IMG/VR virus record: IMGVR_UViG_3300043418_000182
DNA: 64,000 nucleotides
Strand: one strand, 5' to 3'
Origin: an uncultured virus (IMG/VR IMGVR_UViG_3300043418_000182)
Lineage: Duplodnaviria; Heunggongvirae; Uroviricota; Caudoviricetes; Schitoviridae
Position numbers and translations under genes: made by a program. Every line of letters begins with the position of its first letter. The stretch's first letter is position 1. The notes beneath the pieces are model-generated. The model was not told the origin of the DNA. It did no database searches and saw nothing but the letters and a program-made list of their open reading frames with translations. Below, in pieces: positions 39,703 through 56,938 of this stretch.

Positions 39703-39806
39703 ATGTGGTCTAATATCCATCAATCGAACGGATGACTGAATAGCAGGAACTTCCGACAATCAATTTAGTCCCAAACACTTGGTTTGGGTAGTCGGAGAAC
39801 CTGCGA

Positions 39807-41047: not shown

Positions 41048-41057
41048 AGGAAAAACT

Positions 41058-41516
41058 ATGTTTAACGAAAACCTCAAACTCAGCGGCGAGCTCAGCATCG
41101 TCCTCAAAGACAAAGACGGCAACATCAAAGATCAACGCGAGTTGAAAAACTTGGTGGTTGATTCTGGTTTGGCTTACATCATCAGCCGCATGGTGGGTAC
41201 CGCCAAGAACGTCATGAGCCACATGGCTTTGGGTTCTAGTACTACTGCTACTGCTTCTGGCCAAACAGACTTGGTGTCTATGCTCGGTGCTCGTGAACCC
41301 ATCGACAGCACAACCATTAACGGCTCAGTGAACCAGAAGGTCACTTACGTGTCCAACTTTGAAGCTGGCGATGCTACTGGTGCTGTGACCGAAGCCGGTG
41401 TGTTCAACGCATCTACTGGTGGCGACATGCTGTGCCGTACCGTGTTCCCAGTGGTCAACAAGCAAGCTGATGACACGATGGCCATCACTTGGACCATCAC
41501 CCTGGCTGCCGCTTAA
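41058..41516 (+). CDS. virion structural / tail protein
   Basis: NLVVDSG, MALGS, GAVTEAGVFNA...MLCRTVF.VVNK...ITWTIT (tail-collar / DUF3751-like pattern). Confidence 0.7.
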   Translation: MFNENLKLSGELSIVLKDKDGNIKDQRELKNLVVDSGLAYIISRMVGTAKNVMSHMALGSSTTATASGQTDLVSMLGAREPIDSTTINGSVNQKVTYVSNFEAGDATGAVTEAGVFNASTGGDMLCRTVFPVVNKQADDTMAITWTITLAAA

Positions 41517-41528
41517 TAGAGGCTGCAA

Positions 41529-41741
41529 ATGAGCACCATCACATCACGGGCAACGAAGGGAGCACCCCTCACCAACAATGAGGTGGATGCGAACTTTGCA
41601 AACCTTAACGCAGACAAGATGGCCAAGGCTTCAAACCTTGGTGATCTTGTCGATGCGCCGACTGCACGCACCAACCTGGGCGTGTACAGCGTGCAGCAAG
41701 CACAAGATTACGCAACCGCCATGGCGATTGCACTGGGGTAA
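41529..41741 (+). CDS. small tail-associated protein
   Basis: KGAPLTNNEVDANF, NLGDL...ARTNLG and AMAIALG motifs common in fiber adaptors. Confidence 0.65.
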   Translation: MSTITSRATKGAPLTNNEVDANFANLNADKMAKASNLGDLVDAPTARTNLGVYSVQQAQDYATAMAIALG

Positions 41742-41744
41742 CAC

Positions 41745-42071
41745 ATGGCATTCAAATCAAAAGCCACTGCAAGCATTGGTCTTGTCGGTAGTCCATCTAC
41801 CATCAGCGACACGGTTGCTTCGACTACTACGCATACAGTCGTTGGTTTGTCTTTGGCAAACATCGGCACGGCAATCGTCACAGCCAGTGCAAAGCTGAAC
41901 AAGTCAGGCGGCACTAGCGTGTTCCTGATCAAGGATGCCATCGTCCCACTGAGCGGTGCATTGATCATTGTGGGTGGTGATCAGAAGCTGGTTCTCGAAG
42001 CCGGTGATTCGATCACAACTTATTGCAGCGCTGCATCCTCGTTGGATGCGGCATTGAGCTACCTGGTGTAA
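41745..42071 (+). CDS. small structural protein
   Basis: GGDQKLVLEAGD motif that commonly follows AMAIALG genes. Confidence 0.65.
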   Translation: MAFKSKATASIGLVGSPSTISDTVASTTTHTVVGLSLANIGTAIVTASAKLNKSGGTSVFLIKDAIVPLSGALIIVGGDQKLVLEAGDSITTYCSAASSLDAALSYLV

Positions 42072-42074
42072 ACC

Positions 42075-43340
42075 ATGAGTTACCTAGGTTCCTCAGCTGC
42101 TCCGCTACCAGTAGCGTTCTCTGGCCCTCAATCTGAGGGCTTTGATGGTGGTACTGCCACCTTCACACTTTCACGTTCTGTGGCTAAGGTCACGGACATT
42201 GAAGTGGTGATCAACAACGTAGCGCAGTCTCCGTATGACGGCAGCTACAGCGTGTCTGACAAGACGTTGACGACTTCGGAAACGGTCAGTGCTGGTACCA
42301 AGAACGTCATTGTGAAATACCGAGACATTGCGCTTGGTTCATTAATTCCTGGTGCCGGCACCGTGGGTAAATCCCAGCACGATGTGGCGAACTTGGATGG
42401 CACCGGAGCAATGCTCATTCCTGTTGGAACAACAGCTCAAAGACCCAGTGTTCCTGTATTGGGGCACACGCGCTTCAACACAACACTTGGTTGTTTGGAA
42501 ATGTATGACGGGTCTCAATGGACAACCGTTAAGGCAGCATTAAATGCTTCTGGCGGGACCGTAACGGACGTTGCTGGATATAGATACCACACGTTTACTT
42601 CTTCAGGAAACTTGGTCATTGTCTCAGGTAACGCTATAGCACAAGCACTTGTGGTAGCCGGAGGCGGTGGAGGCGGTTCAGGTTGGTATGCGGGTGGAGG
42701 CGGCGCTGGTGGAATGGTTCAGGCGTCCGCTTTTACATTGAGCGTAGGAACCTACTCAGTTGTAATTGGTGCGGGCGGTTCAGCAAGCGTAAACGCAGCG
42801 TTAACGGCATCGAATGGCGGAAATTCTTCACTCACTGGGTTAACAAATGCAATCGGTGGCGGTGGTGGAGGTAGTAGGGCGCAACAATCTGGACAAACCG
42901 GTGCAAATGGTGGATCCGGTGGAGGCGCAGCTTGGCCTACTACATCAGGTGGCTCCGGTACTGGAGGGCAAGGTAATGCAGGGGGTTCCAACTCAACAGG
43001 TGGGTATGGGGCTTCTGGTGGTGGTGCCGGTGCTGCAGGTAATCCTGGGCCTTCTTCCCCATATGGTTCAAACGGTGGTGCAGGCTTGGCATGGGTTAAT
43101 GGTGCTTACTACGCTGGCGGTGGTGCTGGAGGCACAGATACTAGTACTGTACGCACCGGTGGTATTGGTGGTGGTGGTAATGCGTCAGCAGGTGCTTCTT
43201 TAAGTTGTGTCGATGGAACAGCAAACACAGGCGGTGGTGGCGGTGGCGGTAGTGGAACGGAGTCAGGCTCTGGACTTGTCAAGCCTTACGCTGGTGCTAA
43301 TGGTGGCTCCGGTATTGTGATTATTCGCTACCAAATCTAA
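42075..43340 (+). CDS. glycine-rich tail fiber protein
   Basis: MSYLG N-terminus, GTTAQRP...RFNTT, YRYHTFTSSG, long Gly-rich domain ending GGSGIVIIRY. Confidence 0.8.
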   Translation: MSYLGSSAAPLPVAFSGPQSEGFDGGTATFTLSRSVAKVTDIEVVINNVAQSPYDGSYSVSDKTLTTSETVSAGTKNVIVKYRDIALGSLIPGAGTVGKSQHDVANLDGTGAMLIPVGTTAQRPSVPVLGHTRFNTTLGCLEMYDGSQWTTVKAALNASGGTVTDVAGYRYHTFTSSGNLVIVSGNAIAQALVVAGGGGGGSGWYAGGGGAGGMVQASAFTLSVGTYSVVIGAGGSASVNAALTASNGGNSSLTGLTNAIGGGGGGSRAQQSGQTGANGGSGGGAAWPTTSGGSGTGGQGNAGGSNSTGGYGASGGGAGAAGNPGPSSPYGSNGGAGLAWVNGAYYAGGGAGGTDTSTVRTGGIGGGGNASAGASLSCVDGTANTGGGGGGGSGTESGSGLVKPYAGANGGSGIVIIRYQI

Positions 43341-43349
43341 GGAAAAAAC

Positions 43350-43712
43350 ATGTCTCATTTCGCAAAAGTCCAAAACGGTATCGTCACACAAGTCATCGTT
43401 GCAGAACCAGAGTTCTTCGAGACCTTTGTGGACACTTCACCCGGTGAATGGATTCAAACCAGCTACAACACCCAAGGTGGTGTGCACATCAATGGTGGTG
43501 AGCCATTGCGCAAGAATTACGCTGGCATCGGCTTTACCTACGACGCACAACGTGATGCGTTCATCCCACCCAAACCATTTGCTTCTTGGCTTCTGAATGA
43601 AGACAGCTGCTTGTGGAATGCTCCTGTGGCAATGCCTGAAGATGACAATCGCTACAGCTGGGATGAAGCCACAACCTCTTGGGTTGTGATTCCTGCAGAA
43701 GGCGGTGAGTAA
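43350..43712 (+). CDS. fiber-associated protein / chaperone
   Basis: MSHFAK...WIQTSYN...RKNYAGIG...DAFIPPKP family that typically follows Gly-rich fibers. Confidence 0.7.
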   Translation: MSHFAKVQNGIVTQVIVAEPEFFETFVDTSPGEWIQTSYNTQGGVHINGGEPLRKNYAGIGFTYDAQRDAFIPPKPFASWLLNEDSCLWNAPVAMPEDDNRYSWDEATTSWVVIPAEGGE

Positions 43713-44257
43713 TGGGCCTCAGCAGGATCATTCTTGATGCGTTGCAAGACCTTGCAGTGACAACTGCAAAGCTTGCCAATGGTGCGGTAACCCAAGCCAA
43801 GCTGGGTCCTAACGTGGCTGGTAATGGCCCTGCGTTCTCAGCGTATTTAAGCGGTTCAAACCAAACAGTTGGCTCAAGTACATACACAAAAGTTACTTTA
43901 AACTCAAAAGAATTTGACACAGCGAACTGCTTTGATAGCACAACAAACTACCGTTTTACGCCAAACGTAGCAGGCTATTACTTTATTTCGGCTGAAAGCT
44001 GGGTAAATTCGCCGGGCACAAACCCATCTTCAATTACGAACTGCCTTTATAAAAATGGTTCAGTTTATAAACAGGCAGATGAGTATGGAGCAGCCAACGT
44101 AAACGGTGGTGTAACAGTTTCATCGCTGGTTTACTTGAACGGCTCAACAGATTATGTTGAGTTTTACATCTATGCAACGGGGGGTTTAGCAAGCAACTAC
44201 ACGTTTGCTGGAGTTACCTACACTTACATGAGTGGATTTTTAGCGAGGGCAGCATAA
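43712..44257 (+). CDS. tail fiber with C1q-like head
   Basis: GPAFSAY...EFDT...FD...YRFTPNVAGYY...YLNGSTDYVE. Confidence 0.75.
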   Translation: MGLSRIILDALQDLAVTTAKLANGAVTQAKLGPNVAGNGPAFSAYLSGSNQTVGSSTYTKVTLNSKEFDTANCFDSTTNYRFTPNVAGYYFISAESWVNSPGTNPSSITNCLYKNGSVYKQADEYGAANVNGGVTVSSLVYLNGSTDYVEFYIYATGGLASNYTFAGVTYTYMSGFLARAA

Positions 44258-44427
44258 TGATACTCGTAGAAAAAATCAAAGCAATCTACCCTGAACTGCA
44301 AAACGCAGACTTTATGGACACCATCCGCTTGCAGAACGACAGCGATGGCAAAGGCGACTACATTGCTAAGTGGGAACACCCAACACTTGCTCGTCCCACT
44401 GACGAACAACTTGAAAGCACAATCTAA
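44257..44427 (+). CDS. XkdW-like fiber chaperone (56 aa)
   Basis: Read manually: MILVEKIKAIYPEL...LQNDSDGKGDYIAKWEHPTLARPTDEQL; TAATG overlaps on both sides. Confidence 0.75.
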   Translation: MILVEKIKAIYPELQNADFMDTIRLQNDSDGKGDYIAKWEHPTLARPTDEQLESTI

Positions 44428-45332
44428 TGTACTTAGGCGTCCCACCATTTGGACAAACAGTCCGCACAATCAGCGAGAAGATCGCCATTCAAGACCAGGT
44501 AGATTTCTATCCTGATGGTGGTTACTTGCCTGGCTACATTGACATTGAAATCAACGGTCAAGGTCTTTTGTCTACTGACGTGATTGCCATTGACGGTGTC
44601 AAGGTCACGTTGAAAGTCAAAGCCAACGCACTGGATGAATTCCGTTCAGTAGCTTACTGGCCAGTGAGTTTGGTTGACACATATCGCAAGAACGAATCTG
44701 ATGCTAGGTACTTGCCACTGACTGGCGGTCAAATCACTGGCGGAGTCGGTATTGGCGGCGCAGCTGAGGCAGGTTCCCAACTACGGACGTACAACGCATC
44801 GGGTCACGGCAAAATCACAATTGAAACGGCTGACGCCTATCAATCGTTCTTAAATTTTTCAGCTGCATCTAATGAAGTTTCTGTAGGTTTTGTAAAAGCA
44901 GATAACTCGTTTCGTATTTGCCAATATGGGGATTTGAGCGCCAATGAGTTAATGAGGGTTGATACGGCCGGTTTATTTAAAATGAACAGCGGCTACGGCT
45001 CAGTTGCTAGTGTTTACGGTTGCCGCGCTTGGGTAAACTTTAACGGCACTGGCACTGTGGCGATTCAAGCCAGCGGAAACGTATCAAGCATCACTGACCA
45101 AGGTGTTGGTCTTTATAAAGTCAACTTTTCAACAGCGATGCCTGATGTGAATTACGCAATGTCAGGTTCTATGGAAGCGCTTTCTGGAAATAACGTTGTT
45201 GCGCAATACACCGATGGCGGAAGCGGAACTGCGGCAACTTCTGGGAACAAAGGGACTACTGGATGTCAGATAATTACAAGCGGCGGCAGTCTGACGGATG
45301 CGGCCGAAATTAGCGCCATCTTTGTACGATAA
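44427..45332 (+). CDS. tail fiber protein
   Basis: MNSGYGSVASVYGCRAWVNFNGTGTVAI.ASGNVSSITD.G.G.Y.VNF.TAMPD.NY fiber head. Confidence 0.8.
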   Translation: MYLGVPPFGQTVRTISEKIAIQDQVDFYPDGGYLPGYIDIEINGQGLLSTDVIAIDGVKVTLKVKANALDEFRSVAYWPVSLVDTYRKNESDARYLPLTGGQITGGVGIGGAAEAGSQLRTYNASGHGKITIETADAYQSFLNFSAASNEVSVGFVKADNSFRICQYGDLSANELMRVDTAGLFKMNSGYGSVASVYGCRAWVNFNGTGTVAIQASGNVSSITDQGVGLYKVNFSTAMPDVNYAMSGSMEALSGNNVVAQYTDGGSGTAATSGNKGTTGCQIITSGGSLTDAAEISAIFVR

Positions 45333-45347
45333 ACATAGGCATTTAGC

Positions 45348-45764
45348 ATGACACAACGAATCATATATCCAACACAAGACGGCGGCGTTGCCATCTTAAT
45401 CCCAAGCGGTGAGCTGTCGATTGAAGAGGTCGCACGCAAAGACGTTCCTGTTGGTGTGCCGTTCAAAATCATCGACACCGTTGAAGTTCCTGATGACCGC
45501 ACATTCCGCAGTGCATGGGAAGCTGACATGACTTCACCGCATGGCATCGGCATCGGCCCACAGGCGTGGTTCATTGAGCAGTACGAAGCCGAGATCGCTG
45601 CAATCAATGCAGAGCAAATGCCATTGCGTTTGCCTGACGACCAACAAACAGTCGAAGAGTATGACGCTGAAGCTGCTGCTCAGTTTGAAGCCAACAAGGC
45701 CGCACGCATAGCGCAACTCAACGCACAGATTGCCGTCCAACGCGCAGAAATGGCAGCAGCATGA
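45348..45764 (+). CDS. fiber assembly chaperone
   Basis: RIIY...GGVA...KDVP.G...VP.DRTFR.AW family. Confidence 0.7.
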   Translation: MTQRIIYPTQDGGVAILIPSGELSIEEVARKDVPVGVPFKIIDTVEVPDDRTFRSAWEADMTSPHGIGIGPQAWFIEQYEAEIAAINAEQMPLRLPDDQQTVEEYDAEAAAQFEANKAARIAQLNAQIAVQRAEMAAA

Positions 45765-45991
45765 TCACGATCAACATTGACAAAGCCAAGGGCATTGCCC
45801 ACGACATCCGACGCGCAGCACGAGCTGAAGAGTTTAAGCCGCTAGACGAGGTGATCATGAAGCAGATTCCAGGGACTGACGTAGCAGCTGTAGAAGCTGA
45901 GCGTCAAAGCATTCGTGACAAGTACACGGCTATGCAAGTAGCAATTGATTCTGCAGTTGTTGTGGATGAAATTAAAGCTGCGTTGCCATAA
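45761..45991 (+). CDS. fiber assembly chaperone (second part)
   Basis: MITINIDKAK.IAH..RR.AR..EF.PLD family. Confidence 0.7.
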   Translation: MITINIDKAKGIAHDIRRAARAEEFKPLDEVIMKQIPGTDVAAVEAERQSIRDKYTAMQVAIDSAVVVDEIKAALP

Positions 45992-46000
45992 GGAACACAC

Positions 46001-46996
46001 ATGGGAAACGCAAGAAAATTTGCTGATGCCTCTGCTGCTTTCAACAGTGGCGGTCTTATCGGTATCCGTAACCGACTTATCAATGGCAATGCCATCATTG
46101 GTCAACGAGGCACCATTAACCTTACCAACACCACTCCAGCCTACGGTACCGATCGTATGTTGACCGGTGTGGTGTCAGGTACAGGCATCAACGTCAACCT
46201 CTTCAAATCAGCTTTTGGTGGATCTTCAAGTGGTTTGGCTCATTACATCTCTGGTTCAATGACAGGTGGTACACCGTATTGGTGTCAACGCATTGAAGCT
46301 ATGAATGTCTTTGACCTGAATGGCAAGAACATCATTGTCAGTGGTTTGATGTATCAGGACACTGGCAGCACTCAAAGTTTTGTTGCTCGTATTGCCAAAG
46401 CCAATGCAGTAGACAACTTTGCAGGGGGTGTTACTGCCTTGCAAACAGGTACAGCATTCTCTGTTCCTACCGGTGTGGTCACACCTTTCACAGCCATCTT
46501 TACCTTGGGTGCATCAGATGCTTCCAATGGCTTGATGCTTGAGGTGTATGCCGCTTCTCCAATTACCTGCACAAGCAAGAACATTTGCTTGACTGATTTG
46601 CAGTTGGAGAAGGGCGCTATTCAGACTGGATTTGATTTCAGACATGTTGGTACTGAGTTGACTTTGGCTCAGCGGTATTTTCAAAAGTACAACACCTCGT
46701 CTGGAGCCGAAGGTTGGCAAATAATGCTTAACTATACCGGAACAGATTGTTACGGCGCGTTTTTGTATCCAGTGACAATGCGCTCTACCCCCTCATTTTC
46801 GTATTCTGCAACCTCAGATTTTATTATGTTAGTTGCAGGAGGAACAAAAGTAATTTCTGCTATGAGTTGTAACCAATTAACTTCCCAAGCTGCTGGTTTG
46901 TACGCTTCTGTGACGGCTTCATTTACAGCAGGTCAAGCGTGTCAATTGCGCGGTGCAACATCGACAGGGTGGTTCTCTCTTAATTCGGAGTTGTAA
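46001..46996 (+). CDS. tail fiber / carbohydrate-binding receptor-binding protein
   Basis: RNRLINGN..I.QRG, QLEKG...T.F..R....EL.L.QRYF and ending L.SEL. Confidence 0.8.
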   Translation: MGNARKFADASAAFNSGGLIGIRNRLINGNAIIGQRGTINLTNTTPAYGTDRMLTGVVSGTGINVNLFKSAFGGSSSGLAHYISGSMTGGTPYWCQRIEAMNVFDLNGKNIIVSGLMYQDTGSTQSFVARIAKANAVDNFAGGVTALQTGTAFSVPTGVVTPFTAIFTLGASDASNGLMLEVYAASPITCTSKNICLTDLQLEKGAIQTGFDFRHVGTELTLAQRYFQKYNTSSGAEGWQIMLNYTGTDCYGAFLYPVTMRSTPSFSYSATSDFIMLVAGGTKVISAMSCNQLTSQAAGLYASVTASFTAGQACQLRGATSTGWFSLNSEL

Positions 46997-47173
46997 ATGT
47001 ACAAATTTATCTTTGATATTGCTCGTGGCACAAATGCTGATGTCGTGTTTAAAACAGATGCAAATATGACAATCCCATTCGACCCCTCCAACACAGACTA
47101 CCAAGCCTATTTGAAATGGCTTGACGAAGGCAACACGCCTGAGCCAGCTGACCCTGTACTTGAAAGCAATTAA
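46997..47173 (+). CDS. 58-aa fiber chaperone-like protein
   Basis: Read manually: IPFDPSNTDYQAYLKWLDEGNTPEPAD motif. Confidence 0.75.
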   Translation: MYKFIFDIARGTNADVVFKTDANMTIPFDPSNTDYQAYLKWLDEGNTPEPADPVLESN

Positions 47174-47484
47174 TGTTTACGGATGACCAAGGCACCAAGC
47201 GTGAAACACCTGACGAGATGAACATCGAGCACAAGCTTGATCTCATCCTTGAAGAAATCAAACACATGCGTGGAGCGTTCCCAAAGGACGAGGAAGGCAA
47301 TGTGGACTATGACGGTCACCGCAAGTACCACGAACATTTGATTCGAGCTGCAGAGGCTCAGGAAGCCTTCTGGAATGACCTCAAGAAAGAGATCATCAAG
47401 AAGGGCATCTTGGGTGCTGTGGTCATTGCCATTGGTTTGGTGTGGTTAGGTTTTCAAGCAAAGCTAGGTATCGGCCCGCATTGA
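47173..47484 (+). CDS. membrane protein (C-terminal TM), lysis region
   Basis: D.DGHRKYHE motif plus one TM helix. Confidence 0.7.
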   Translation: MFTDDQGTKRETPDEMNIEHKLDLILEEIKHMRGAFPKDEEGNVDYDGHRKYHEHLIRAAEAQEAFWNDLKKEIIKKGILGAVVIAIGLVWLGFQAKLGIGPH

Positions 47485-47485
47485 T

Positions 47486-48250
47486 GTGGATCCCATCAGC
47501 CTTCTCATGGCAGCACAAGCAGCAGTGGCTGCTGTGCGCAAAGGCTGTCAGATGCTCTCTGAAGGCAAGGCTGAGATTGGCAAGCTCAAGAAAAACATTG
47601 AGCAAGGCATTGGAGACGCTAAAGCAATCTACAAAGAAGTCACTGGCCTGTGGTCGTGGCTTCTTGGTTTATTTGGGGCTGGTCAAGGAAAGCCAAAAGG
47701 AACGGTACCAGCGGTTGCACCAACACCAGCAGTGGTTGTTGCACCTAGCCCAGCTAAGAAAGCTAAGCGAGAAGTCGAGCCAGAGTTATCGTATGAGGAG
47801 TACCAGACACAAGCAATCCACCAAGTCTGCGAACAGTTAAAGAGCTTCTTCGAAATCCGAAGAAAGCTGAAAGAACACTGTCTTGAATTGGAAGAGGTCA
47901 GCAAGACCACTACAACAATTGAAGACAGCGCTCTTGATAGAGTTGAGATCGAACTGCAGTTAGAAAACATGACAGTTCAGATCCGTGAAGCAATGGTGTA
48001 TGCACCCGCAGAACTGCGAAACATCTACAGCCGCTTCCTTGAGATGTACAACTTGATCATTGAAGAGCAAGAGTTTGCTCGTCAGGTCAAACGCAAGAAA
48101 GACAGGGATGCAAAGTGGCAACGGGAACTCCTCCGAAATCATCGTATAGACCGGGCAACGGTGGGGATAGCCGTGGCGGTAATGGTTCTGTGGATGTGGG
48201 CCTTTCTACTGTCACTCGGATGGCTCGTGAAGACACACACTGGTTCGTAG
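47486..48250 (+). CDS. coiled-coil membrane protein, lysis region
   Basis: GTG start, MDPISLL N-terminus, long helical region, C-terminal TM. Confidence 0.7.
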   Translation: MDPISLLMAAQAAVAAVRKGCQMLSEGKAEIGKLKKNIEQGIGDAKAIYKEVTGLWSWLLGLFGAGQGKPKGTVPAVAPTPAVVVAPSPAKKAKREVEPELSYEEYQTQAIHQVCEQLKSFFEIRRKLKEHCLELEEVSKTTTTIEDSALDRVEIELQLENMTVQIREAMVYAPAELRNIYSRFLEMYNLIIEEQEFARQVKRKKDRDAKWQRELLRNHRIDRATVGIAVAVMVLWMWAFLLSLGWLVKTHTGS

Positions 48251-48456
48251 TGGGTGTTGTCATCCTTTCCTTTGTCCTGTTCTTTGTCCTCCCAATTGGT
48301 GTGCTCATTGCCGTCGATAATGAGAAGCGGCTTGGAAGAGCCGAAGATCGTATTGATCGCAAGATCAAAAAATTGGAGAAACTTGAACTACTCTTAAAGG
48401 AGAGAGATGAAAAAGCTATTGTTCCTAAGCCTGCTACTGATGCTGGTGGCCTGTGA
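48220..48456 (+). CDS. type II membrane protein with periplasmic coiled coil
   Basis: MAREDTHW, TM helix, then KRLGRAEDRIDRKIKKLEKLE. Confidence 0.6.
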   Translation: MAREDTHWFVVGVVILSFVLFFVLPIGVLIAVDNEKRLGRAEDRIDRKIKKLEKLELLLKERDEKAIVPKPATDAGGL

Positions 48457-48625
48457 AGACAGGTACCGGTACTTTTGCCAGGATCCCAAAAACTTTCAGG
48501 CCAAGCGATGCCAAAAGCCAGATTGTCAATTCACTCAGGACTGCCCTGAATATCTTGTAGCCCCAGTATTGGAGAAGAAAATTGAATCCACTCAATCCCC
48601 CACGAGCTCTGTTCCAAACAACTGA
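48407..48625 (+). CDS. Cys-rich lipoprotein
   Basis: Signal peptide II MKKLLFLSLLLMLVA-C; four further Cys; AAGGAG RBS. Confidence 0.75.
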   Translation: MKKLLFLSLLLMLVACEDRYRYFCQDPKNFQAKRCQKPDCQFTQDCPEYLVAPVLEKKIESTQSPTSSVPNN

Positions 48626-49130
48626 AGAGCTGATCGCATTCTGTGAAGTCATGGTGTGGGCCTTCGTGGTCGGCATCGTGATGCTTGTGTTTGGTGGCTT
48701 GGTTTTCACCATGCTTTATTCCGTGACGTTTGTTCAGCAGCCTCTTAAAACGATGGCTCCGATTGACATGGCCTACACCAAGATGCTCAACGACATCGTT
48801 CTGCTGATGACGGGTTCTATCACTACCCTCATCGGTATGCGCGTGGCTAGAAAAGCCAGTGAGATGATTGCCAACAAGGTTTCGCCTATGTTGGTTCCCG
48901 GGGTAGCAGCTGCGGCCGCTACGGTACCTGGAGTTGTCTCCCCAAACGTACCGGTAGCTGAGGCACCTAAGCCAAGCGTAATGCCGGATTGGAATTGGAT
49001 GGGTTGGACGAATCCTCAGCTTGATGAAAGCTGGACACCGCCACCACCTCCAACGACGCCTGCGGATCACCGTGAGCCTGAAGAAGACCTCCATGACCTC
49101 GCAGTTGCTCGAGCAGAACAGAAAGGATGA
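48582..49130 (+). CDS. 2-TM holin-like membrane protein
   Basis: Two TM segments and a Pro-rich tail, upstream of spanin and endolysin; start uncertain. Confidence 0.6.
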   Translation: MNPLNPPRALFQTTEELIAFCEVMVWAFVVGIVMLVFGGLVFTMLYSVTFVQQPLKTMAPIDMAYTKMLNDIVLLMTGSITTLIGMRVARKASEMIANKVSPMLVPGVAAAAATVPGVVSPNVPVAEAPKPSVMPDWNWMGWTNPQLDESWTPPPPPTTPADHREPEEDLHDLAVARAEQKG

Positions 49131-49603
49131 AGATGCTGATGCTTCTCAGGAACCCCTGGATCATTCTCGGCGCGCTATCTGCCGTCTTAACTGCATACTT
49201 CTACGGCCACCATGCCGGTTTTGTGCAGAGGGACTTGGAGATGCAAGCCGAGATCTCAACAAAGAACGAGGAGGCTCGTGAGCGCGAAAGCGCGGTACGG
49301 GCCGAACTCGATCAAACAACCACTCAATTGAAAGACGCTACAGATGCCATCACTCAAAAGCAAACTGCTCTTGATCGCGCTATTAGCTCTGGGCGGGTGC
49401 GCCTCCCAGCCGCAAGTTGCGTACAAGCCAATGCAGGTACCTCCGCTGCCCCCGTCGATCGGGTTGAAGCAAACGCCGAATCTGACCGAGAGACTCTCCG
49501 ACTTATTGCTGCCATCGCAGCAGACGGAGACAAAGCCATCGTTCAACTCAACGCCTGCATCGACGCTTACAACCAAGTAAGGAGTCAAGTAAATGGTCAA
49601 TGA
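49127..49603 (+). CDS. i-spanin (Rz-like)
   Basis: N-terminal TM, coiled coil, SGRVRL hinge, AADGD.AIVQLNACIDAY. Confidence 0.85.
   Translation: MKMLMLLRNPWIILGALSAVLTAYFYGHHAGFVQRDLEMQAEISTKNEEARERESAVRAELDQTTTQLKDATDAITQKQTALDRAISSGRVRLPAASCVQANAGTSAAPVDRVEANAESDRETLRLIAAIAADGDKAIVQLNACIDAYNQVRSQVNGQ
49344..49580 (+). CDS. o-spanin (Rz1-like), embedded in the i-spanin gene
   Basis: +1 frame; lipobox LLALGG-C and Pro-rich PPLPP. Confidence 0.8.
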   Translation: MPSLKSKLLLIALLALGGCASQPQVAYKPMQVPPLPPSIGLKQTPNLTERLSDLLLPSQQTETKPSFNSTPASTLTTK

Positions 49604-50207
49604 ATCACAACTGCAACGATTGCACATCAACCCAGCGTTGTGTGCAGCACTAAACGAAACGTTTGAAACGTTCCACATCAGCACACCACGTCAGCAAGCA
49701 GCCTTCTTGGCTCAGTGTGGTCACGAAAGTGGCAACTTCACCAAGCTGGAAGAAGACTTGCGCTACAGAGCAGCAACTTTGTTCAAGATGTTCCCAAAGA
49801 CGCCAAAGCGTGCATGGGGGTTTGCATCTTTGGAAGAGGCCATGGCTTACCAAGGTCACCCAGAGCGCATTGCTTCACGCATCTACGGCGCTCGAATGGG
49901 CAACCGTGATGAAAAGTCAGGTGATGGCTGGCTGTACCGTGGCTCTGGAAACATGCAGCTCACCGGGGCGGCAAACTTCTTCCATGCCGGCAAAGCCTTG
50001 GGTGTCGACTTTGTCAAGAACCCTGATCTGGTGCGCACACCAGAATGGGCATTGAAGACTGCAGGCTGGTACTGGTCGACCCACAAGTGCAATGAGTTGG
50101 CTGAGAAAGCTGATTGGGTTGGCTTGACCAAAGCAGTCAATGGTGGCTTGATTGGCTATGACGATCGAGTGGCCCACACTGCTTTGGCACTCAATGTGCT
50201 GAACTAA
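49593..50207 (+). CDS. endolysin, glycoside hydrolase family 19
   Basis: AAFLAQCGHESG, GDGWLYRGSG.MQLTG, A.WYW and T..VNGG..G..DR. Confidence 0.92.
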   Translation: MVNESQLQRLHINPALCAALNETFETFHISTPRQQAAFLAQCGHESGNFTKLEEDLRYRAATLFKMFPKTPKRAWGFASLEEAMAYQGHPERIASRIYGARMGNRDEKSGDGWLYRGSGNMQLTGAANFFHAGKALGVDFVKNPDLVRTPEWALKTAGWYWSTHKCNELAEKADWVGLTKAVNGGLIGYDDRVAHTALALNVLN

Positions 50208-51048: not shown

Positions 51049-51177
51049 TTATTTGTGGCAGCCTTCAACAGTCAGGCCAGCTTGGGCGCGCAGGCAGTCC
51101 CAGACATCCGGCTCACCTTGAAAAAGGAAGAGCAGAGCGAAGACGAAGAGCCAGAATTTGAGGTCGTAGTTGCTCAT
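51049..51177 (-). CDS. 42-aa membrane protein (MSNYDLKFWLFVFALLFLFQGEPDVWD...)
   Basis: Read manually; ATGA-coupled to the upstream ORF. Confidence 0.55.
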   Translation of the reverse strand: MSNYDLKFWLFVFALLFLFQGEPDVWDCLRAQAGLTVEGCHK

Positions 51178-51443
51178 CGCGCACCTCCTTCAAAGGCTTC
51201 AATGGCTTCGAGAACCATGAATGAGTCAACCAGCAAGCCGTGTGGTTTTTTGTCCAGTTCATACCGGATGTACTCAGCAATGTAAGCAGCTAGTTGGGCA
51301 CGGCTCCCGCCGGTCAGCTGCTCAGCAAACTTTTGCAGTTGTTCGTAGGTAAACGAAACACCCGTGACGGCACGCATGGGGCCTTGGGTGTAAGGGATCG
51401 CACCACAGTTGTAAGCGGTGGTTCGGAGGTGTTCTTGGATCAT
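51174..51443 (-). CDS. hypothetical protein
   Basis: 89 aa, ends AIEAFEGGAR; AGAAAG RBS. Confidence 0.6.
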   Translation of the reverse strand: MIQEHLRTTAYNCGAIPYTQGPMRAVTGVSFTYEQLQKFAEQLTGGSRAQLAAYIAEYIRYELDKKPHGLLVDSFMVLEAIEAFEGGAR

Positions 51444-51488
51444 GGTGTGCTTTCTGAATGACGCACTTGATGCTCTATGACGCAGCGC

Positions 51489-51525
51489 AAAGAAAAAGGG
51501 CCTGAGTCGTTAGACCCAAGCCCTT
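51489..51525 (-). terminator. intrinsic terminator directly 3' of the attP tRNA fragment
   Basis: Minus strand AAGGGCTTGGGTC-TAAC-GACTCAGGCCCTT followed by TTT: 13-bp stem with 2 G-U. Confidence 0.85.
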
Positions 51526-51542
51526 GAATTTACTGCAAATTT

Positions 51543-51592
51543 TGGTGCGCCCGGAGAGACTCGAACTCCCGGCCCCCTGGTTCGTAGCCAGA
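51543..51592 (-). mobile_element. attP core: 3' half of tRNA-Arg(ACG)
   Basis: TCTGG-CTACGAA-CCAGG-GGGCC-GGGAG-TTCGAGT-CTCTC-CGGGCGC-ACCA; anticodon arm to CCA present, D arm and 5' acceptor strand absent; next to an integrase. Confidence 0.85.
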
Positions 51593-51729
51593 AGGTAGAT
51601 GAGCCAGTTTCCCTTGAAAGATCAAGTGCTTAGGTGGTTGGTAAATTGTCATTGTCAGGAAATTTGACAGAGCCTAAGTGTTTGATTTTTAAGGAAGTCA
51701 AAAATGGCTATGACGCAGTTTTTTGGGGT

Positions 51730-51975
51730 CTACCGGCGTGCAATCCAGCCAACTGGCTCGGTGTCTTCGCTGGTGATCTTGGCATACTCTGTGTCGGCCA
51801 AGGTACGGTCTTCAAAGCAGAACCGTCTGCCCCATCCGGTAGGGTTCATGTCCATGTAGATGGCGCGCGTGAACATCAGGTCTCCGATGCCCACAATGCT
51901 GCCGTCTTCCAACAACTTGATGTCTCGGTAGCCTCCTAAGGCGCGGATCTCGTCAAGCAATTCTTCATTGGTCAT
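51730..51975 (-). CDS. hypothetical protein
   Basis: MTNEELL...LMFTRAI...GWGRRFCF...EPVGWIARR. Confidence 0.65.
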   Translation of the reverse strand: MTNEELLDEIRALGGYRDIKLLEDGSIVGIGDLMFTRAIYMDMNPTGWGRRFCFEDRTLADTEYAKITSEDTEPVGWIARR

Positions 51976-52121
51976 TTCATGGCCCTCAGTTTCAGCAAAA
52001 GTCCCTCGGTGTAGAGGCGAGACCAAACGGCGATCGCTCCCGTCGCGTGAGCGAAAGGGAGCAGAGCCATCAGTTTATCGAGCTCTCTATCGGCTCGTTC
52101 AACAAGTTCTTCCCTGGTCAT
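51972..52121 (-). CDS. 49-aa hypothetical protein
   Basis: Read manually (MTREELVERADRELDKLM...); AGGAAC RBS and ATGA coupling. Confidence 0.5.
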   Translation of the reverse strand: MTREELVERADRELDKLMALLPFAHATGAIAVWSRLYTEGLLLKLRAMK

Positions 52122-52127
52122 GTGTTC

Positions 52128-53219
52128 CTATCTGAGGGGCGTTACCCGCTCTGCTTTTCTTCGGTAGATGCGCTCGGTGGTCTTGGCATCTGCGTGGGCC
52201 AGTAGGGCTCTGGCATGTTCAAGGGTGTCTGCATCACTGCCGACCTTGGCCCGAAGGTCATGCTCGGTGAAGTTTTGCTTGACGGCCGTCTCTTTGAGCA
52301 CTCGTTCAAAAAAGCGCTGCCACATCGACTTCCACCCAGATGCTTTGCTTGTGGTTTCGTTGACGTAGCCTTGGCCATACCGGTTGCAGAACAAGAACGG
52401 TGAGTTGGGGTTAGACCGTGAAGTCTTGGCCAGCTCTACTGCCTGACGAAGCTCTGGTGACCACTCGTAAATGGTCCGCTTGCCGGTTTTCTTCTTGGTT
52501 TTGTGCCTTTGGGTATGGATGCCGTCTTCTTTAAGTTGATCCTCCTGCAGCCGCAGCAAGTCACCTTGAGCCAGCCCAGTGAGTAGCTTGAGTCGAATGT
52601 AGGCTTGGATCATCAAGACACTGCCCTTTTTCCTTTTGGAATCCAATGACAGCGCTTCGATGATCTCCCAGTCTTCAACGTAGCGATCTCGGGGCAGAGC
52701 GTTTTGAAAGCGCATCTGGTAGGCAAATGGATGCCGGTTAATGAAGCCCCATTCCACAGCTTTGGTGTAAGCATGGGACAGCAGCTCCACTTCTCTGAGT
52801 GCAGCAATTCGCCCACCTGTCATTCGGCCAGTCTCAGGATCCTTCTTCTTGACCGATCGCTTGTCCACGTACTGGTAAACCAGTTGAGGCGTAAATGGTT
52901 CAAGAGGAAGGTGCCCAAAGATTTGTCGAATCTTTTTGAGCTGGCCTTTGTTGCTTGTTTGACTGGCGGCTGACTTGGTAGGGATGACCTCGATCACATA
53001 ACGATCAAGCAATTGGCCAATGGTCTTGGCAGTGTCAGCCCGTTCCACTCGATCAGCCCATACCTTGTAGGCTTCATTGAGCTTGTCACCCAGGCGGAAT
53101 ACTTTCTTGCCATCCCACAAGTGCTCCAAACCAGGGGGAACCCGGTAGTAGTAGGCACCGTGGTCGACCTTCCACCGAAGTGGTAGGCCTTTGTTTTCTT
53201 TGAGTCTGGCCTTGGCCAT
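52128..53219 (-). CDS. int: tyrosine recombinase / phage integrase
   Basis: N-terminal arm-binding region (GAYYYRVP), HDLRAK, LLAH, IYRR; box I reads TGLAQGDLL with the Arg missing. Confidence 0.9.
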   Translation of the reverse strand: MAKARLKENKGLPLRWKVDHGAYYYRVPPGLEHLWDGKKVFRLGDKLNEAYKVWADRVERADTAKTIGQLLDRYVIEVIPTKSAASQTSNKGQLKKIRQIFGHLPLEPFTPQLVYQYVDKRSVKKKDPETGRMTGGRIAALREVELLSHAYTKAVEWGFINRHPFAYQMRFQNALPRDRYVEDWEIIEALSLDSKRKKGSVLMIQAYIRLKLLTGLAQGDLLRLQEDQLKEDGIHTQRHKTKKKTGKRTIYEWSPELRQAVELAKTSRSNPNSPFLFCNRYGQGYVNETTSKASGWKSMWQRFFERVLKETAVKQNFTEHDLRAKVGSDADTLEHARALLAHADAKTTERIYRRKAERVTPLR

Positions 53220-53443
53220 TACATTGCATCCCAGTTGGGTACTGCTTGTTTGGTTTTACGGTTGGCTTCAGGATTGCCATCAAACACTTTGGTGATGTGG
53301 GCTCTGAGGATAGCGACGCTTCCATCAGGCCTCACACGGTGTTCAATTCCCATGGCTCTGAGAACCTTGACCTGCGCAGAGCAAACTTTGCGCTGGGTCA
53401 GTTCCTTTACTTCTTCAAAGTCTAGGAAGGTATCAGTGGCCAT
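53219..53443 (-). CDS. DUF4224-type excisionase
   Basis: FLD.EEVKELT.RK..SAQ...L..MGI.H.VRPDG...PNWDAM; directly upstream of int. Confidence 0.8.
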   Translation of the reverse strand: MATDTFLDFEEVKELTQRKVCSAQVKVLRAMGIEHRVRPDGSVAILRAHITKVFDGNPEANRKTKQAVPNWDAM

Positions 53444-53660
53444 GCCTTTCCGCCTGAGCCAGGATGTGTTCATCTTCAGCAGCTTGATAAGCAGCTTTCA
53501 GCTCTTCGTAGTGATTCTGGACATACCGGTAGTCAGCGTAGCCCAAGCCAGAAGCTTGAACAGCCTGAATATCGGCCATGTTGAACAGCCCAGTCAAACG
53601 AAGCTCTTCGTAGTCATGCCATTGTTGTAGGCGTTCTTGATTGAATTGAGGTTTTTGCAT
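53433..53660 (-). CDS. hypothetical protein
   Basis: YEELRLTGLFNM motif; coupled to the xis-like gene. Confidence 0.6.
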   Translation of the reverse strand: MQKPQFNQERLQQWHDYEELRLTGLFNMADIQAVQASGLGYADYRYVQNHYEELKAAYQAAEDEHILAQAERHGH

Positions 53661-53703
53661 GTAAATTGCTTTAAAATTTGGGAAATTCTTTAAAGGGAAA
53701 CCT

Positions 53704-54123
53704 ATGGCCGCCAATGAAATGATCGCTAAGTTGTTCCATGCTCGCACTGCTGCGCACATGGCTCATCTTCAAACTCGCTCTTTTGCAGAGCACAAAGCTC
53801 TGAACGAGTTCTACGATGAGATCGTCGACTTGGCGGACACGTTCGCTGAAACATACCAAGGCTTCTTTGGTTTGATCATGGATTACCCACCCATGGGCCT
53901 GCCTACTGGCAAAGCTTGTGATTGGATTGATGGTCTTCGCATGTACCTTGAGAAGAACCGTGAGTCCAACTGCAAAGGCAAAACCACACTTGAAAACATC
54001 AACGATGAGTTGATGGGTCTGTGTGCACAGACTTGCTACAAACTGCGCTTCTTGGACAATCCAGCAATGGAAGAGTCTGCTGAAGAAGAGCAAGCCGAGT
54101 ACATGGGAATGTCCAAGTGGTGA
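53704..54123 (+). CDS. ferritin/Dps-like protein (DUF5856-like)
   Basis: H..H.QT.SFAEHKAL.EFYD.I..L.D.F.E.YQG and LENINDE...YKLRFL; stand-alone gene on the opposite strand. Confidence 0.75.
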   Translation: MAANEMIAKLFHARTAAHMAHLQTRSFAEHKALNEFYDEIVDLADTFAETYQGFFGLIMDYPPMGLPTGKACDWIDGLRMYLEKNRESNCKGKTTLENINDELMGLCAQTCYKLRFLDNPAMEESAEEEQAEYMGMSKW

Positions 54124-54137
54124 TAAACCACTGAAAG

Positions 54138-54172
54138 AAAAAAGCCCTCCAAGTGAGGGCTTTTTTTTTTTT
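54138..54172. terminator. bidirectional intrinsic terminator
   Basis: AAAAAAGCCCTC-caagt-GAGGGC followed by T12. Confidence 0.9.
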
Positions 54173-54302
54173 ATTGTTTCAGGTGGTTCAAGAGGTAAAA
54201 CATGGCAAGGTGTGCCGAGTCTTTGGTCTGGGTTTTGTTGAACACCCTCACGTAGTGAAGGTACCAACCCCAGTTGTCACTGCCAACGGGGTAGCGTTTC
54301 AT
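54171..54302 (-). CDS. 43-aa hypothetical protein
   Basis: Read manually (MKRYPVGSDNWGWYLHYVRVFNKTQ...); ATGA-coupled to the polymerase stop. Confidence 0.45.
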   Translation of the reverse strand: MKRYPVGSDNWGWYLHYVRVFNKTQTKDSAHLAMFYLLNHLKQ

Positions 54303-56938
54303 GCTGTCTCCATTTCTTGCATGGCTTTCTTGCACGCCTCAGCGATCGTTGATTGATCTGCGTTGTTGGGCAAGGTGATGGGATGTGCCCAGTCTGGCCA
54401 AAAGATGTCCAGAGCAGCACCCAGCTTCACAGTTGGATGTTGGATCTCAGGCAACTCTTGCCATTGCATGGACTTGATGAGCTCACGGTTGGCCCATTCC
54501 ACAACGTTGATGTCGTCCTTCATCAGGATGTAAATCGCGTCATGGATGAGAGCCACTGGCTTGATGTCGAGTCGGTACTTGGATGCCCAGACCTTCTTCA
54601 TGAAGTCCACCGCAGCACGGTTGTTCAATAGGCCATAGGATTGGCCCAATGCGTTACCGGCAGTGCGTCCTTCTGCTGCAGCTTCATAGGGCATGCCCCG
54701 GGTACCAAACACCACTTGCGAAAGCAGGGGAGTACGGACCCTCAAACCAAATGCCACCTCAACGTAGCCGTCCTTGGCAGCCTGGTGGAGCCGCTTTTGA
54801 ACGTAGGCATCACTGACCTGGTAAAGATCGTGATAGCCCTTCTCGATTGATTTGGCTTTGTCTTCGGGCCAGCCCAAGTTGCTCATCATGCCGTGGTAGG
54901 TACCGCCGTAGGTCAACAAAAAAGTAGGAGCTTTTGAGTCCTGACGGAGCTCTGGAAATTCCTTTTTGATTGTGTTGACTGACTTGGGGTCATCCAGGTC
55001 AATATGAGGCACCTGGTCACGGAAGTAGTAGGCTGCGCGCAAGCAGTGACCGTCAAAACCTTTTTCGTAGACAGCAAGCTTGTTGGGATCCTTGGTGGTC
55101 AGTGCAGAGATGTAGTCTTCAAGCGAGTTGAAGTCAGCACCGCCAAACAGCCAGCCAATAGGAGCTTTGAAACACGTCTTGATGATCTTGCCAAACTCAG
55201 AGCCTGCAGGCAGGTTCTGCATGTTGGGATCAGAAGAGCTAAGTCGGCCAGAGACCGTACCACCCAAATTGAACGAGCCATGCAAGTACCGCATGCCATC
55301 GGCTTTCATCACACCACGCTCAAACGCAGGGATGAAAGTGCTCAGGATTTTGGTGACCTTGCCGTAACCAATCAGCGCTTCAAGGATTTCCTTGTAGGCT
55401 GGTTCGTTGGTGTGGTTGATCAGTTTTTCGATCGTCTCTCCGCCTGTCGCCGGCTGCTTCGTGTCTGTGAGGTCAAGGACTGGGAGCCCCATTTGCTCAT
55501 AGAGCAGTCTTTGAAGTTGGGGACCACTGTTAGGGTTAAAAGCAACACCAGCGAACTTTTCAATCGGATGCTGTTTGATCTTAAGTTTTGCATTGGCTTT
55601 TTCCATTTCGCTTTGCTGCAAAAGCAGGTTCAGCATTTGAATCACTGGGCTGTTGTGGATTGCATCGTAGTGACGTTGCTGCTCCCAAACCAGTTCTGTT
55701 TTGACTTGCTGGATTCGGTTGTCTGACATGGGCATGCCTGTCAATTCCAACTGAATGATCAACTTCAAGCTTGGCATCATCAACGTCTGGTAGATGTTGA
55801 GCTGCTGGTCTTGCACCATGGTGGGCCAGAATTTCTCAGCCACATAGTTGGTCGACAAAGCATCCACCAGGTTGTATTGAAGAAGCTCAGGCAACGGAAT
55901 CTTGCGAATGTCCTTGATGTCTTCCTTGGCCCAGTTGCCTGCAAACTCATGAGCAAGGCTTTTCAAGCCCAACACGTTGCCAGCAGTGGAATTGGTGGCC
56001 AAGTACGCAATGATCTTTGTGTCATGAAACCTGCGAGTCATCAATTCCAAACCATCCAGCAATCCTGCTGTGTCCAGCAAGTCGTGCATGAACAGTGTGT
56101 AGATGATCACGCACACGTCGTAATCTGCTTTGTGGAAAATCAACTCACCTTGGTAGGTCGAAAAGAATTCACGCAGCAGAGAACGCACACCACGGTTGAT
56201 CAATTGCAGGCCATGAAAGCCGTCTTTAAGATCAATAGCAGCACATGGGTTTGGATGCTTGTCTCTCTCGATGTAATCACAAGCAAACGCAATGCCGTTG
56301 TGCTTGTCCCAGGCAAAAGCAATGGTGCCAATACCAGCTTCGTCAAATGCCAGCGAGAAGGCTTCGATGTCACAACTGAGGCTTGGGTATTGGTGCAGTG
56401 ATTTGAGAGCTTCAGCGATGTCGTCAATGGATTCTGGGTACTGCGCGCTGTGAATAATGTTCTGACCCAGCGCTTGGTAGTTGCCAGCCAGCGATGAAGC
56501 CAAAGTATGCAAGCTCAAATCGAGTTTGGCTTGCAACGATGGGTTGTAAATCAACTGCTGGTAATTCAAAGCAAGCACCACATTCATGTGCTCGTAGCCT
56601 TTGACTTTGCAAGGCAGCACGTAACCAAAATGAGGATCTGCTTTGGATTGCCCAGTGAGCGTTTTGAAGTAGTTTGAGTCCGCTACGTAGAGATGCTTGA
56701 CACCCACCTGATCCAATGCAGGCAGCAGGTTGTCCAGATACTCTTTGATGAACTTGGCTGGCGCTTTGCCATCGGGGTTGTACTTGACGGTGAAAGCAAT
56801 GATGTCGCTTTCAGAAACACCACGCTTCACCAGCGGGTCAATGTAGTTGATGCGCAGTTCGCTCTTGTTGAAAGAAGTACCTTTCACAAGGACAGCAATG
56901 CTGTACGAAGTGTTTTCGGTGAAGATGTGGTGTCTCAT
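54299..56938 (-). CDS. family A DNA polymerase (N4 gp39-like)
   Basis: Exo I DIEAF, GRLSSSDPNMQN, motif A DFNSLE, motif B RQDSKAPTFLLTYG, motif C IHDA. Confidence 0.95.
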   Translation of the reverse strand: MRHHIFTENTSYSIAVLVKGTSFNKSELRINYIDPLVKRGVSESDIIAFTVKYNPDGKAPAKFIKEYLDNLLPALDQVGVKHLYVADSNYFKTLTGQSKADPHFGYVLPCKVKGYEHMNVVLALNYQQLIYNPSLQAKLDLSLHTLASSLAGNYQALGQNIIHSAQYPESIDDIAEALKSLHQYPSLSCDIEAFSLAFDEAGIGTIAFAWDKHNGIAFACDYIERDKHPNPCAAIDLKDGFHGLQLINRGVRSLLREFFSTYQGELIFHKADYDVCVIIYTLFMHDLLDTAGLLDGLELMTRRFHDTKIIAYLATNSTAGNVLGLKSLAHEFAGNWAKEDIKDIRKIPLPELLQYNLVDALSTNYVAEKFWPTMVQDQQLNIYQTLMMPSLKLIIQLELTGMPMSDNRIQQVKTELVWEQQRHYDAIHNSPVIQMLNLLLQQSEMEKANAKLKIKQHPIEKFAGVAFNPNSGPQLQRLLYEQMGLPVLDLTDTKQPATGGETIEKLINHTNEPAYKEILEALIGYGKVTKILSTFIPAFERGVMKADGMRYLHGSFNLGGTVSGRLSSSDPNMQNLPAGSEFGKIIKTCFKAPIGWLFGGADFNSLEDYISALTTKDPNKLAVYEKGFDGHCLRAAYYFRDQVPHIDLDDPKSVNTIKKEFPELRQDSKAPTFLLTYGGTYHGMMSNLGWPEDKAKSIEKGYHDLYQVSDAYVQKRLHQAAKDGYVEVAFGLRVRTPLLSQVVFGTRGMPYEAAAEGRTAGNALGQSYGLLNNRAAVDFMKKVWASKYRLDIKPVALIHDAIYILMKDDINVVEWANRELIKSMQWQELPEIQHPTVKLGAALDIFWPDWAHPITLPNNADQSTIAEACKKAMQEMETA

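Follow-up and report, generated by a model that had tools for sequence, protein, structure and literature searches.

The 64,000-nucleotide stretch of IMG/VR record IMGVR_UViG_3300043418_000182 that was analyzed here as a whole (the window) probably carries a functional lambda-type integration module, belonging to a lineage of N4-like phages that infects Betaproteobacteria; stable lysogeny is a further step that we only infer. The module spans positions 51458 to 53473 and consists of an excisionase-like gene (xis), an integrase gene (int), two small open reading frames (ORFs) and a phage attachment site (attP) of about 260 bp. To judge from its gene content, the genome is that of a genuine N4-like (Schitoviridae) phage, with a giant virion RNA polymerase (vRNAP) ORF and capsid, portal and replication genes of the N4 type. 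The vRNAP ORF gave a weak match to Pfam N4_RNAP_helical (18.7 bits, under the cut-off). PHROG and N4-type genes were found for the large terminase (TerL), the portal, the major head protein, a primase, a single-stranded DNA-binding protein (SSB) and an exonuclease, and an N4 Gp49-family protein is also encoded (85 bits). Relatives of the capsid protein (MCP) share 70 to 94% identity with it, and one source names them N4-gp56 family. The window has a GC content of 50.9%, and its family A DNA polymerase gene (PolA) is the only part with nucleotide similarity (about 63 to 68%) to cultured N4-like phages. The nearest virus record, G001, does not cover the region from 44 to 64 kb and is uninformative on the module. 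The coordinates of the features are collected in Table 1.

Table 1. Positions of the integration module, its attachment site and neighboring features in the window.
Feature	Position	Strand	Basis or remark
Lambda-type tyrosine integrase Int, 363 aa	52128..53219	-	Pfam Phage_integrase, phrog_1
xis-like gene, DUF4224, 84 aa	53219..53473	-	Pfam DUF4224 43.7 bits (cut-off 22), PHROG excisionase families
attP core, tRNA-Arg(ACG) 3' part (CTGG 51588-51591; loop CTACGAA 51581-51587; CCA 51543-51545)	51543..51591	-	sequence
Arm-type site of the P arm, reading CTGCGTCATAG on the minus strand, 130 nt ahead of the core	51708..51718	-	repeat search, relatives
Two P'-arm arm-type sites TGCGTCAT	51477-51484, 51458-51465 (within 51458..51485)	-	repeat search, relatives
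IHF consensus WATCAANNNNTTR, seen as AATCAAACACTTA	51675..51687	-	pattern match
TGTCA-N7-TGACA inverted repeat	51653..51669		overlaps the position of the inverted arm-type site of relatives
Intrinsic terminator directly 3' of tRNA piece	51496..51525	-	13-bp stem, -21.9 kcal/mol, z -3.98
81-aa ORF, int-attP interval	51730..51975	-	start set from relatives' ORFs
49-aa ORF, int-attP interval	51972..52121	-	conserved in relatives; no family match
89-aa phage ORF past attP	51174..51443	-	N-terminal matches 65% identical, same place in L230, L238
108-aa ORF upstream of xis	53433..53759	-	weakly conserved; short N-terminal matches in relatives only
DUF5856 gene, outside N4 core	53704..54123	+	Pfam DUF5856 77.5 bits, phrog_858
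Hairpin flanked by T-runs, a candidate terminator for both directions, in the PolA-module interval	54133..54171	both	terminator scan (+), fold (-)
Family A DNA polymerase PolA, neighbor upstream of module	54299..56938	-	Pfam DNA_pol_A 150.9 bits
Giant virion RNA polymerase (vRNAP) ORF, 3391 aa	14919..25094	+	ORF list

The core of attP is the 3' part of a tRNA-Arg(ACG) gene, in which the CTGG before the anticodon loop pairs with the CCAG after it. A first-pass annotation, made from the letters alone, had read a tRNA-Arg(ACG) 3' half reaching to CCA in this DNA, and this reading held for the minus strand at 51543-51587. ARAGORN called no tRNA in the window and the Rfam tRNA score of the piece was 16.3 bits, both of which are expected because the piece is a half gene. 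Upstream of the loop the phage sequence is not tRNA-like, so the identity with a host tRNA begins at or just before the anticodon loop, and this start of the tRNA identity is the probable crossover region. A classification of tRNA-gene attachment sites, reportedly drawn up by Williams in 2002, includes an anticodon-loop type.

The cores of nine phages fall into six sequence types, which differ in the anticodon stem, the T-arm and the acceptor stem. When identity from the anticodon loop to the 3' end of a host tRNA gene was examined, six of the nine matched tRNA-Arg(ACG) exactly over 45 nt, among 29 such bacterial genes. These matches were to Nitrosospira and a Burkholderiaceae metagenome-assembled genome (MAG) for L006, L227, L230 and L236, to Polynucleobacter finlandensis for L009 and to Ca. 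Methylophosphatis for L001. As for the window, its core is identical over 46 nt to L212, a metagenome tRNA-Arg(ACG) on a GC-rich piece of 628 nt, the sole difference being the discriminator base. With up to three mismatches allowed, the window core was found in 4 of 401 sampled Burkholderiales genomes, all at exactly three, and in none of five named hosts. A 28-nt pattern of the T-arm and acceptor matched at least 123 metagenome stretches; 88 tRNAs were called among those listed, mostly tRNA-Arg(TCG), with four tRNA-Arg(ACG), of which L212 is the one that fits the window. Dozens of metagenome contigs (loci L102-L223) were also seen to have 3' halves of tRNA-Arg(TCG) or tRNA-Arg(ACG) behind non-tRNA 5' flanks; these presumably belong to unrelated integrative elements whose att sites share this T-arm and acceptor sequence.

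The tRNA piece might instead be the decayed remainder of a phage-encoded tRNA-Arg gene, unrelated to int. tRNA genes are common in phages, and in one relative, L010, the corresponding spot is occupied by a full-length tRNA-Arg(ACG). Nevertheless, seven phages retain exactly the part from the anticodon loop to CCA behind a non-tRNA 5' flank, the host-specific T-arm and acceptor variants match bacterial genes exactly, and the pieces are framed by arm repeats at fixed distances. Even L010 keeps a 15-nt half-site remnant, CTGGCTACGAACCA, 126 bp upstream of its tRNA, with arm-like motifs at the right offsets, and we regard decay of a phage tRNA gene as very improbable. The complete gene of L010 (11881-12054), standing where other phages have the half gene, could be the scar of an aberrant excision or of a core replacement.

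Next, the arms of attP were compared between the phages, with offsets counted from the first base of CTACGAACC. In the window, CTATGACGCAG is found at 51475-51485 and 51708-51718, and the 8-mer TGCGTCAT has three copies in the whole 64 kb, all three inside the 260-bp attP. A direct repeat at about -130, +102/103 and +121/122 is shared by the window, L001, L006, L227, L230, L236 and L238, and an inverted arm copy near -67 is perfect in L006 and partial in L001 and L236. The arm repeat exists in four versions, each uniform within a phage: TGCGTCAT in the window and L006, TGTGCCAT in L001, CTGCAATT in L227, L230 and L238, and TTGTACTAT in L236; L010 has a motif similar to TTGTACTAT. These versions go with Int residues 17 to 19, in the first N-terminal strands (KVD/KFE, RLF, RFA and RHT), a correspondence that is consistent in a small sample. 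Matches to the consensus of integration host factor (IHF), WATCAANNNNTTR, number three in the window against 1.95 expected, and in the alignment L001 and L006 have the consensus at the corresponding place. The terminator after the core is kept in seven relatives (at most 5 mismatches in 31 nt). Arm-type repeats, an IHF site and a strong terminator had all been proposed before, and each was found again at or near the place assigned to it. The TGTCA-N7-TGACA inverted repeat proposed with them is present at 51653-51669, but it is not conserved, and relatives have the inverted arm-type site there.

Read from its sequence, this attP is of the lambda type, with arm repeats on both sides, a core inverted repeat around a short spacer and a predicted site for a bending protein. 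Since arm sites flank the core on both sides, the site is an unrecombined attP and not an attL or attR, in agreement with the unintegrated form claimed for it. That phage genes lie on both sides was likewise borne out, by ORFs conserved on each side; the 89-aa ORF indicates that phage DNA runs on beyond attP. A small integrative element inserted in the phage was considered as well and rejected, as both arms flank the core in the manner of attP rather than of attL or attR.

The proteins of the module were then analyzed. Pfam and PHROG matches upheld the earlier assignment of a tyrosine integrase and a DUF4224 excisionase; the integrase matched phrog_1 with an E value of 3.9e-31, and its catalytic residues K240, H320, R323, H342 and Y352 are in place. 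A search of the Protein Data Bank (PDB) with the Int sequence profile found only an irrelevant repeat protein. An AlphaFold2 model of Int (predicted local distance difference test score, 86.4) has an N-terminal domain of three strands plus a helix (strands 16-19, 22-26 and 40-44, helix 47-58) ahead of two helical domains, the core-binding and the catalytic one. The top Foldseek matches of this model in the PDB were full-length lambda Int structures (1z1b, 1z1g and 5j0n), aligned over about 390 columns. By the model, Int is thus heterobivalent, with N-terminal arm-binding, core-binding and catalytic domains. The ratio of nonsynonymous to synonymous substitution (dN/dS) of int was 0.053 between L227 and L230 and 0.14 to 0.18 between L006 and L227 or L230, values that point to purifying selection. 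The stop codon of xis overlaps the ATG of int by one base, and relatives have xis copies, 61 to 76% identical, ahead of int. Given its DUF4224 domain and its place beside int, xis is predicted to encode the excisionase, or recombination directionality factor.

To see how the module is distributed, IMG/VR was scanned with Int and with PolA. The Int scan gave 14 loci, of which L001, L006, L008, L009 and L010 share further genes with the window and the other nine share int only; the PolA scan gave 43 loci, including L229, which is the same contig as L010. In L227, L230, L236 and L229, int, xis and the small ORFs come after PolA. The cassette is present in eight other N4-like IMG/VR contigs (L001, L006, L008, L009, L010, L227, L230 and L236), half of which are genomes of 70 to 74 kb rated 96 to 100% complete. 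No int was present within 6 kb in at least 12 distant relatives, whose PolA identity is 70% or less. A protein database, clustered at 90% identity, contained at least 120 clusters of this integrase at 64 to 92% identity, at least ten of them on contigs of 69 to 74 kb, and more than 100 of these clusters keep the full length. A comparison with 50,697 deposited phages gave 58 matching records; among the matches listed there was no N4-like record with this integrase, and the closest integrase was that of Xanthomonas phage PBR31 (55%).

A chimeric assembly had been a concern of the first-pass annotation; such a chimera, or host contamination, would have joined a temperate element to an N4-like contig. 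Beyond the surprise of the combination nothing speaks for this; the module has conserved phage genes to its left and right, and the same junctions and synteny recur in eight other contigs from other assemblies. The recurrence of the cassette therefore rules out a chimeric assembly, an explanation that is effectively refuted, and indicates a sizeable int-bearing clade.

Most relatives have the cassette beside PolA; in L008 it adjoins the portal gene, and in L009 it has yet another setting. Either the cassette or the surrounding genome has therefore been rearranged within the clade. Int and attP might be active for something other than stable lysogeny, such as integration that is transient or abortive, a carrier state, or recombination of phage genomes with one another by which the cassette is moved. 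The different contexts fit such a use, and so does the failure, described below, to find a repressor or a prophage. Nonetheless, integration into a chromosome and excision from it call for precisely these parts, a core taken from a host tRNA, a terminator that would complete that tRNA and a xis gene, and the window showed no second att-like site. We hold this alternative to be quite improbable.

Several observations weigh against a functional integration module, beginning with the integrase itself. The match of Int to Pfam Phage_integrase (PF00589) is a narrow pass (29.7 bits, cut-off 27.1), and its box I position is occupied by A217 (TGLAQGDL) and not by the arginine that 52 family members have in a TGxR motif. 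Two residues ahead of the catalytic K240, R238 (motif xRHKT) is a candidate substitute arginine. This was surveyed in 95 Int rows (the window, 14 IMG/VR loci and 80 bacterial loci), of which 94 were usable, L084 being unextractable: 52 had the canonical first arginine (Arg-I) without an arginine at K-2, 42 had the reverse, and none had both. Going by this covariation, R238 may replace the lost first catalytic arginine. Members with the relocated arginine adjoin tRNA-Arg(ACG) genes in bacterial chromosomes, and that type of integrase therefore integrates. The earlier worry that the integrase might be inactive is thus probably unfounded, as the relocated arginine covaries perfectly with loss of Arg-I and int is under purifying selection. 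The family (L001-L094) also presents a natural relocation of a catalytic residue outside the CTnDOT group.

Losses of int among the relatives count on the same side. In L226, int was lost by deletion, and L238 (PolA 70% identical) has no int or xis in its 14.6-kb locus. At the L226 junction (10588-10650), codons 1 to 9 of int are fused to the tRNA core at a shared GAACCAAGG; the deletion removed int, the two small ORFs and the P arm and left xis, the terminator and the P' arm, making L226 a natural int-minus derivative. L238 (10290-11990) has kept attP with the core, the terminator, three CTGCAAT arm sites and the flanking ORFs.

Other adverse points come from bacterial genomes. A scan of genome_contigs with Int gave 111 relatives, mostly from Betaproteobacteria, of which the best 80 were used. 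None exceeds 67% identity, against 69 to 92% within the N4 clade. Fifty of the 80 loci have a tRNA gene no more than 600 bp from int, at 67 to 560 bp beyond it and always convergent; the gene is tRNA-Arg(ACG) in 26 of them, Ser(GGA) in 13 and another tRNA in the remainder. This association, which includes the relocated-arginine type, indicates that the family integrates at tRNA genes. In contrast to all 50 of these loci, the tRNA piece of the N4-like phages is co-directional with int and 0.5 to 1 kb away from it, with two conserved small ORFs between them. Given this orientation, int would come to lie, after insertion, at the junction far from the restored tRNA. As for the target, the window's 42-nt core including the discriminator had no exact match in genome_contigs or metagenome_contigs.

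Further objections come from the search for integrated copies. N4 genes stood beside int in none of the 80 bacterial loci, and the capsid gene was found in none of 121 Polynucleobacter genomes. Among the 120 closest int clusters the longest contig was 74.1 kb, and among the 120 closest capsid clusters 78.6 kb, with no integrated form in either set. An attL-type pattern occurred nowhere in IMG/VR, compared with six attP-type sites. In addition, no HTH_3, Peptidase_S24 or other repressor family was detected in the window or in four near-complete relatives; the first-pass annotation had likewise seen no CI-like repressor. Small ORFs without an assigned function and an H-NS-like gene are left as candidates for such a switch. 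These searches for an integrated form covered species representatives, samples or exact patterns, and so they make frequent stable lysogeny less likely without excluding it. Of the proposal that the lineage is temperate and integrates at tRNA-Arg, the attP module stood, and the prophage search that went with it, through bacterial int loci, capsid scans and the attL pattern, yielded no integrated copy and no attL or attR.

One bacterial locus was examined separately. L088 (9643-11130), on a Caldimonas MAG contig, has an int with the signature of the N4 clade (TGMAQGDL, NQRHKT), 66 to 69% identical; no other bacterial-genome integrase among the best 80 of the 111 has that signature. We do not take L088 for a prophage remnant, as its int is frameshifted, its neighbors are not N4 genes and it has no tRNA piece; a search of the MAG for an N4-type PolA found only a cellular one, 29% identical.

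These results bring forward another explanation, in which the module would be a relic from an ancestor, with the lineage, or this phage at least, now lytic and int, xis and attP kept by inertia or slowly decaying. The missing prophage form and repressor, the loss of int in L226 and its absence from the L238 locus, the window core lacking a perfect natural match and the absent canonical Arg-I would all be accounted for. A relic would hardly be reconciled with strong purifying selection on int, with arm sites and Int N-terminus changing together, or with more than 100 int clusters of full length at 64 to 92% identity. It also agrees poorly with cores re-matched to several host tRNA variants, which require an ongoing interaction with the host attachment site (attB). 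We consider a relic unlikely, and keep to a functional module as the better account.

On that account, integration may proceed as follows. The N-terminal domain of Int would bind the arm sites TGCGTCAT at -130, +102 and +121 and a degenerate inverted one at about -67, IHF would bend the P arm at its conserved consensus, and the core-binding and catalytic domains would bind the inverted repeat CTGG / CCAG of the anticodon stem. Strands would then be exchanged inside the anticodon loop (7 nt) of the tRNA-Arg(ACG) gene of the host, with R238, on a beta-hairpin, standing in for the missing first arginine. The phage-borne 3' part of the tRNA and its terminator would keep the tRNA gene intact at one junction, and int, xis and the two small ORFs would be placed at the opposite junction; Xis (DUF4224) would steer excision. 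The crossover position, the roles of IHF and Xis, catalytic competence and the passage from integration to lysogeny are the parts of this scheme that we infer.

A broader proposition is that a large and diverse N4-like clade of Betaproteobacteria is truly temperate at tRNA-Arg(ACG), using an integrase with a moved arginine, a control other than CI/Cro and a prophage restart that needs no injected vRNAP. We put this forward tentatively, as a possibility that is open to considerable doubt. If true, lytic restart from a prophage without the injected virion RNA polymerase would be a switch not yet described. A protein with an H-NS C-terminal domain (136 aa, 25687-26097, minus strand; PF00816, 38.2 bits, cut-off 25.6) would perhaps provide the control of lysogeny in this broader proposition. 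Copies of it, 50 to 54% identical, are present in three of the four near-complete int-bearing relatives, and only two weak matches were found in the 50,697 deposited phage records. A role as silencer or counter-silencer is conceivable, and any relevance to lysogeny is speculative.

The module was also compared with known systems. The resemblance to the Int/Xis/IHF/attP system of lambda lies in the three-domain integrase, the small xis that immediately precedes int, and the attP of about 260 bp, which has arm sites in both arms, a match to the IHF consensus and a core whose inverted repeat encloses a spacer of 7 nt. Unlike the lambda system, the module would target a tRNA gene and not an intergenic site, its first arginine is relocated and its Xis is of the DUF4224 family; Int has no detectable sequence similarity to solved integrases, with 15 to 18% identity in structural alignments. 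Closer by sequence are the integrases of betaproteobacterial prophages and islands at tRNA-Arg(ACG) (L015-L031 and others, 59 to 63% identical), which belong to the same family and use the same target tRNA, and many of which share the relocated-arginine signature xRHKT. These elements differ in that none carries N4 genes, and in the convergent placement of the tRNA described above. The integrase of Xanthomonas phage PBR31 belongs to this same family. For the IntCTnDOT subgroup, the accessible text of PMC8138268 describes a naturally occurring tyrosine recombinase in which the canonical first arginine is missing and an arginine farther downstream is used. That subgroup is unrelated to the window Int and comes from a Bacteroides conjugative transposon, and the substitution in the window is read from covariation only.

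The first-pass annotation overstated the novelty of the case. Zheng et al. (2023) published 54 N4-like genomes with lysogeny hallmark genes together with integrated N4-like proviruses, as far as can be taken from the accessible part of the paper (PMC10654107). According to that part, lysogeny genes cluster in particular N4-like subfamilies, an integrase is taken as evidence of lysogeny, and N4-like proviral regions are reported in Moraxella and Enterococcus (PMC10654107). It treats gene presence and proviral regions, and no attP, target tRNA or integrase anatomy was found in it. Our literature search found no paper defining the attP of an N4-like phage. Since the existence of integrase-bearing N4-like phages is already in print, the surprise is limited. 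A parallel is LUZ100, described in the accessible text of PMC10134795 as a T7-like phage with temperate features and an integrase, in a family held to be strictly lytic. LUZ100 belongs to a different phage family, and its RNA polymerase is not injected from the virion, so the problem of induction is not posed in the same way.

N4-like phages are treated as obligately lytic in taxonomy, in lifestyle prediction and in therapeutic use, and the existence of a clade whose integration module is conserved and under selection speaks against a blanket rule of this kind. Int, Xis, the 260-bp attP and a defined attB make a concrete system in which to ask whether a phage with an injected RNA polymerase can be lysogenic. 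Two by-products are a defined tRNA-Arg integrase and attP pair for Betaproteobacteria, and a clean natural experiment, within the tyrosine recombinases, in which a catalytic arginine has moved, with 52 and 42 mutually exclusive members.

Finally, the surroundings of the module were analyzed. The 81-aa ORF between int and attP is 54 to 69% identical in L001, L006, L227, L230 and L236 and matches phrog_24748 (unknown function); its best protein-atlas score, 0.85, is within the range of chance matches and is a lead only. The 108-aa ORF upstream of xis had no Pfam or PHROG match. The opposite-strand DUF5856 gene, relatives of which are found in diverse non-N4 phages, adjoins the module also in L001, L006, L227, L230 and L238. 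On the minus strand, the segment 54133-54171 folds into a GC hairpin with UUUUUUCUUUC behind it (-20 kcal/mol, z -3.86). Co-transcription of the module with the middle genes, as earlier proposed, is doubtful, because this two-way terminator-like hairpin and the DUF5856 gene separate PolA from xis. Farther away, a plus-strand block of tail-fiber and lysis genes (36603-50207, 13.6 kb) divides the minus-strand replication genes in two; it is variable among relatives, as L001 goes from attP nearly straight to the homologue of the 37.5-kb region.

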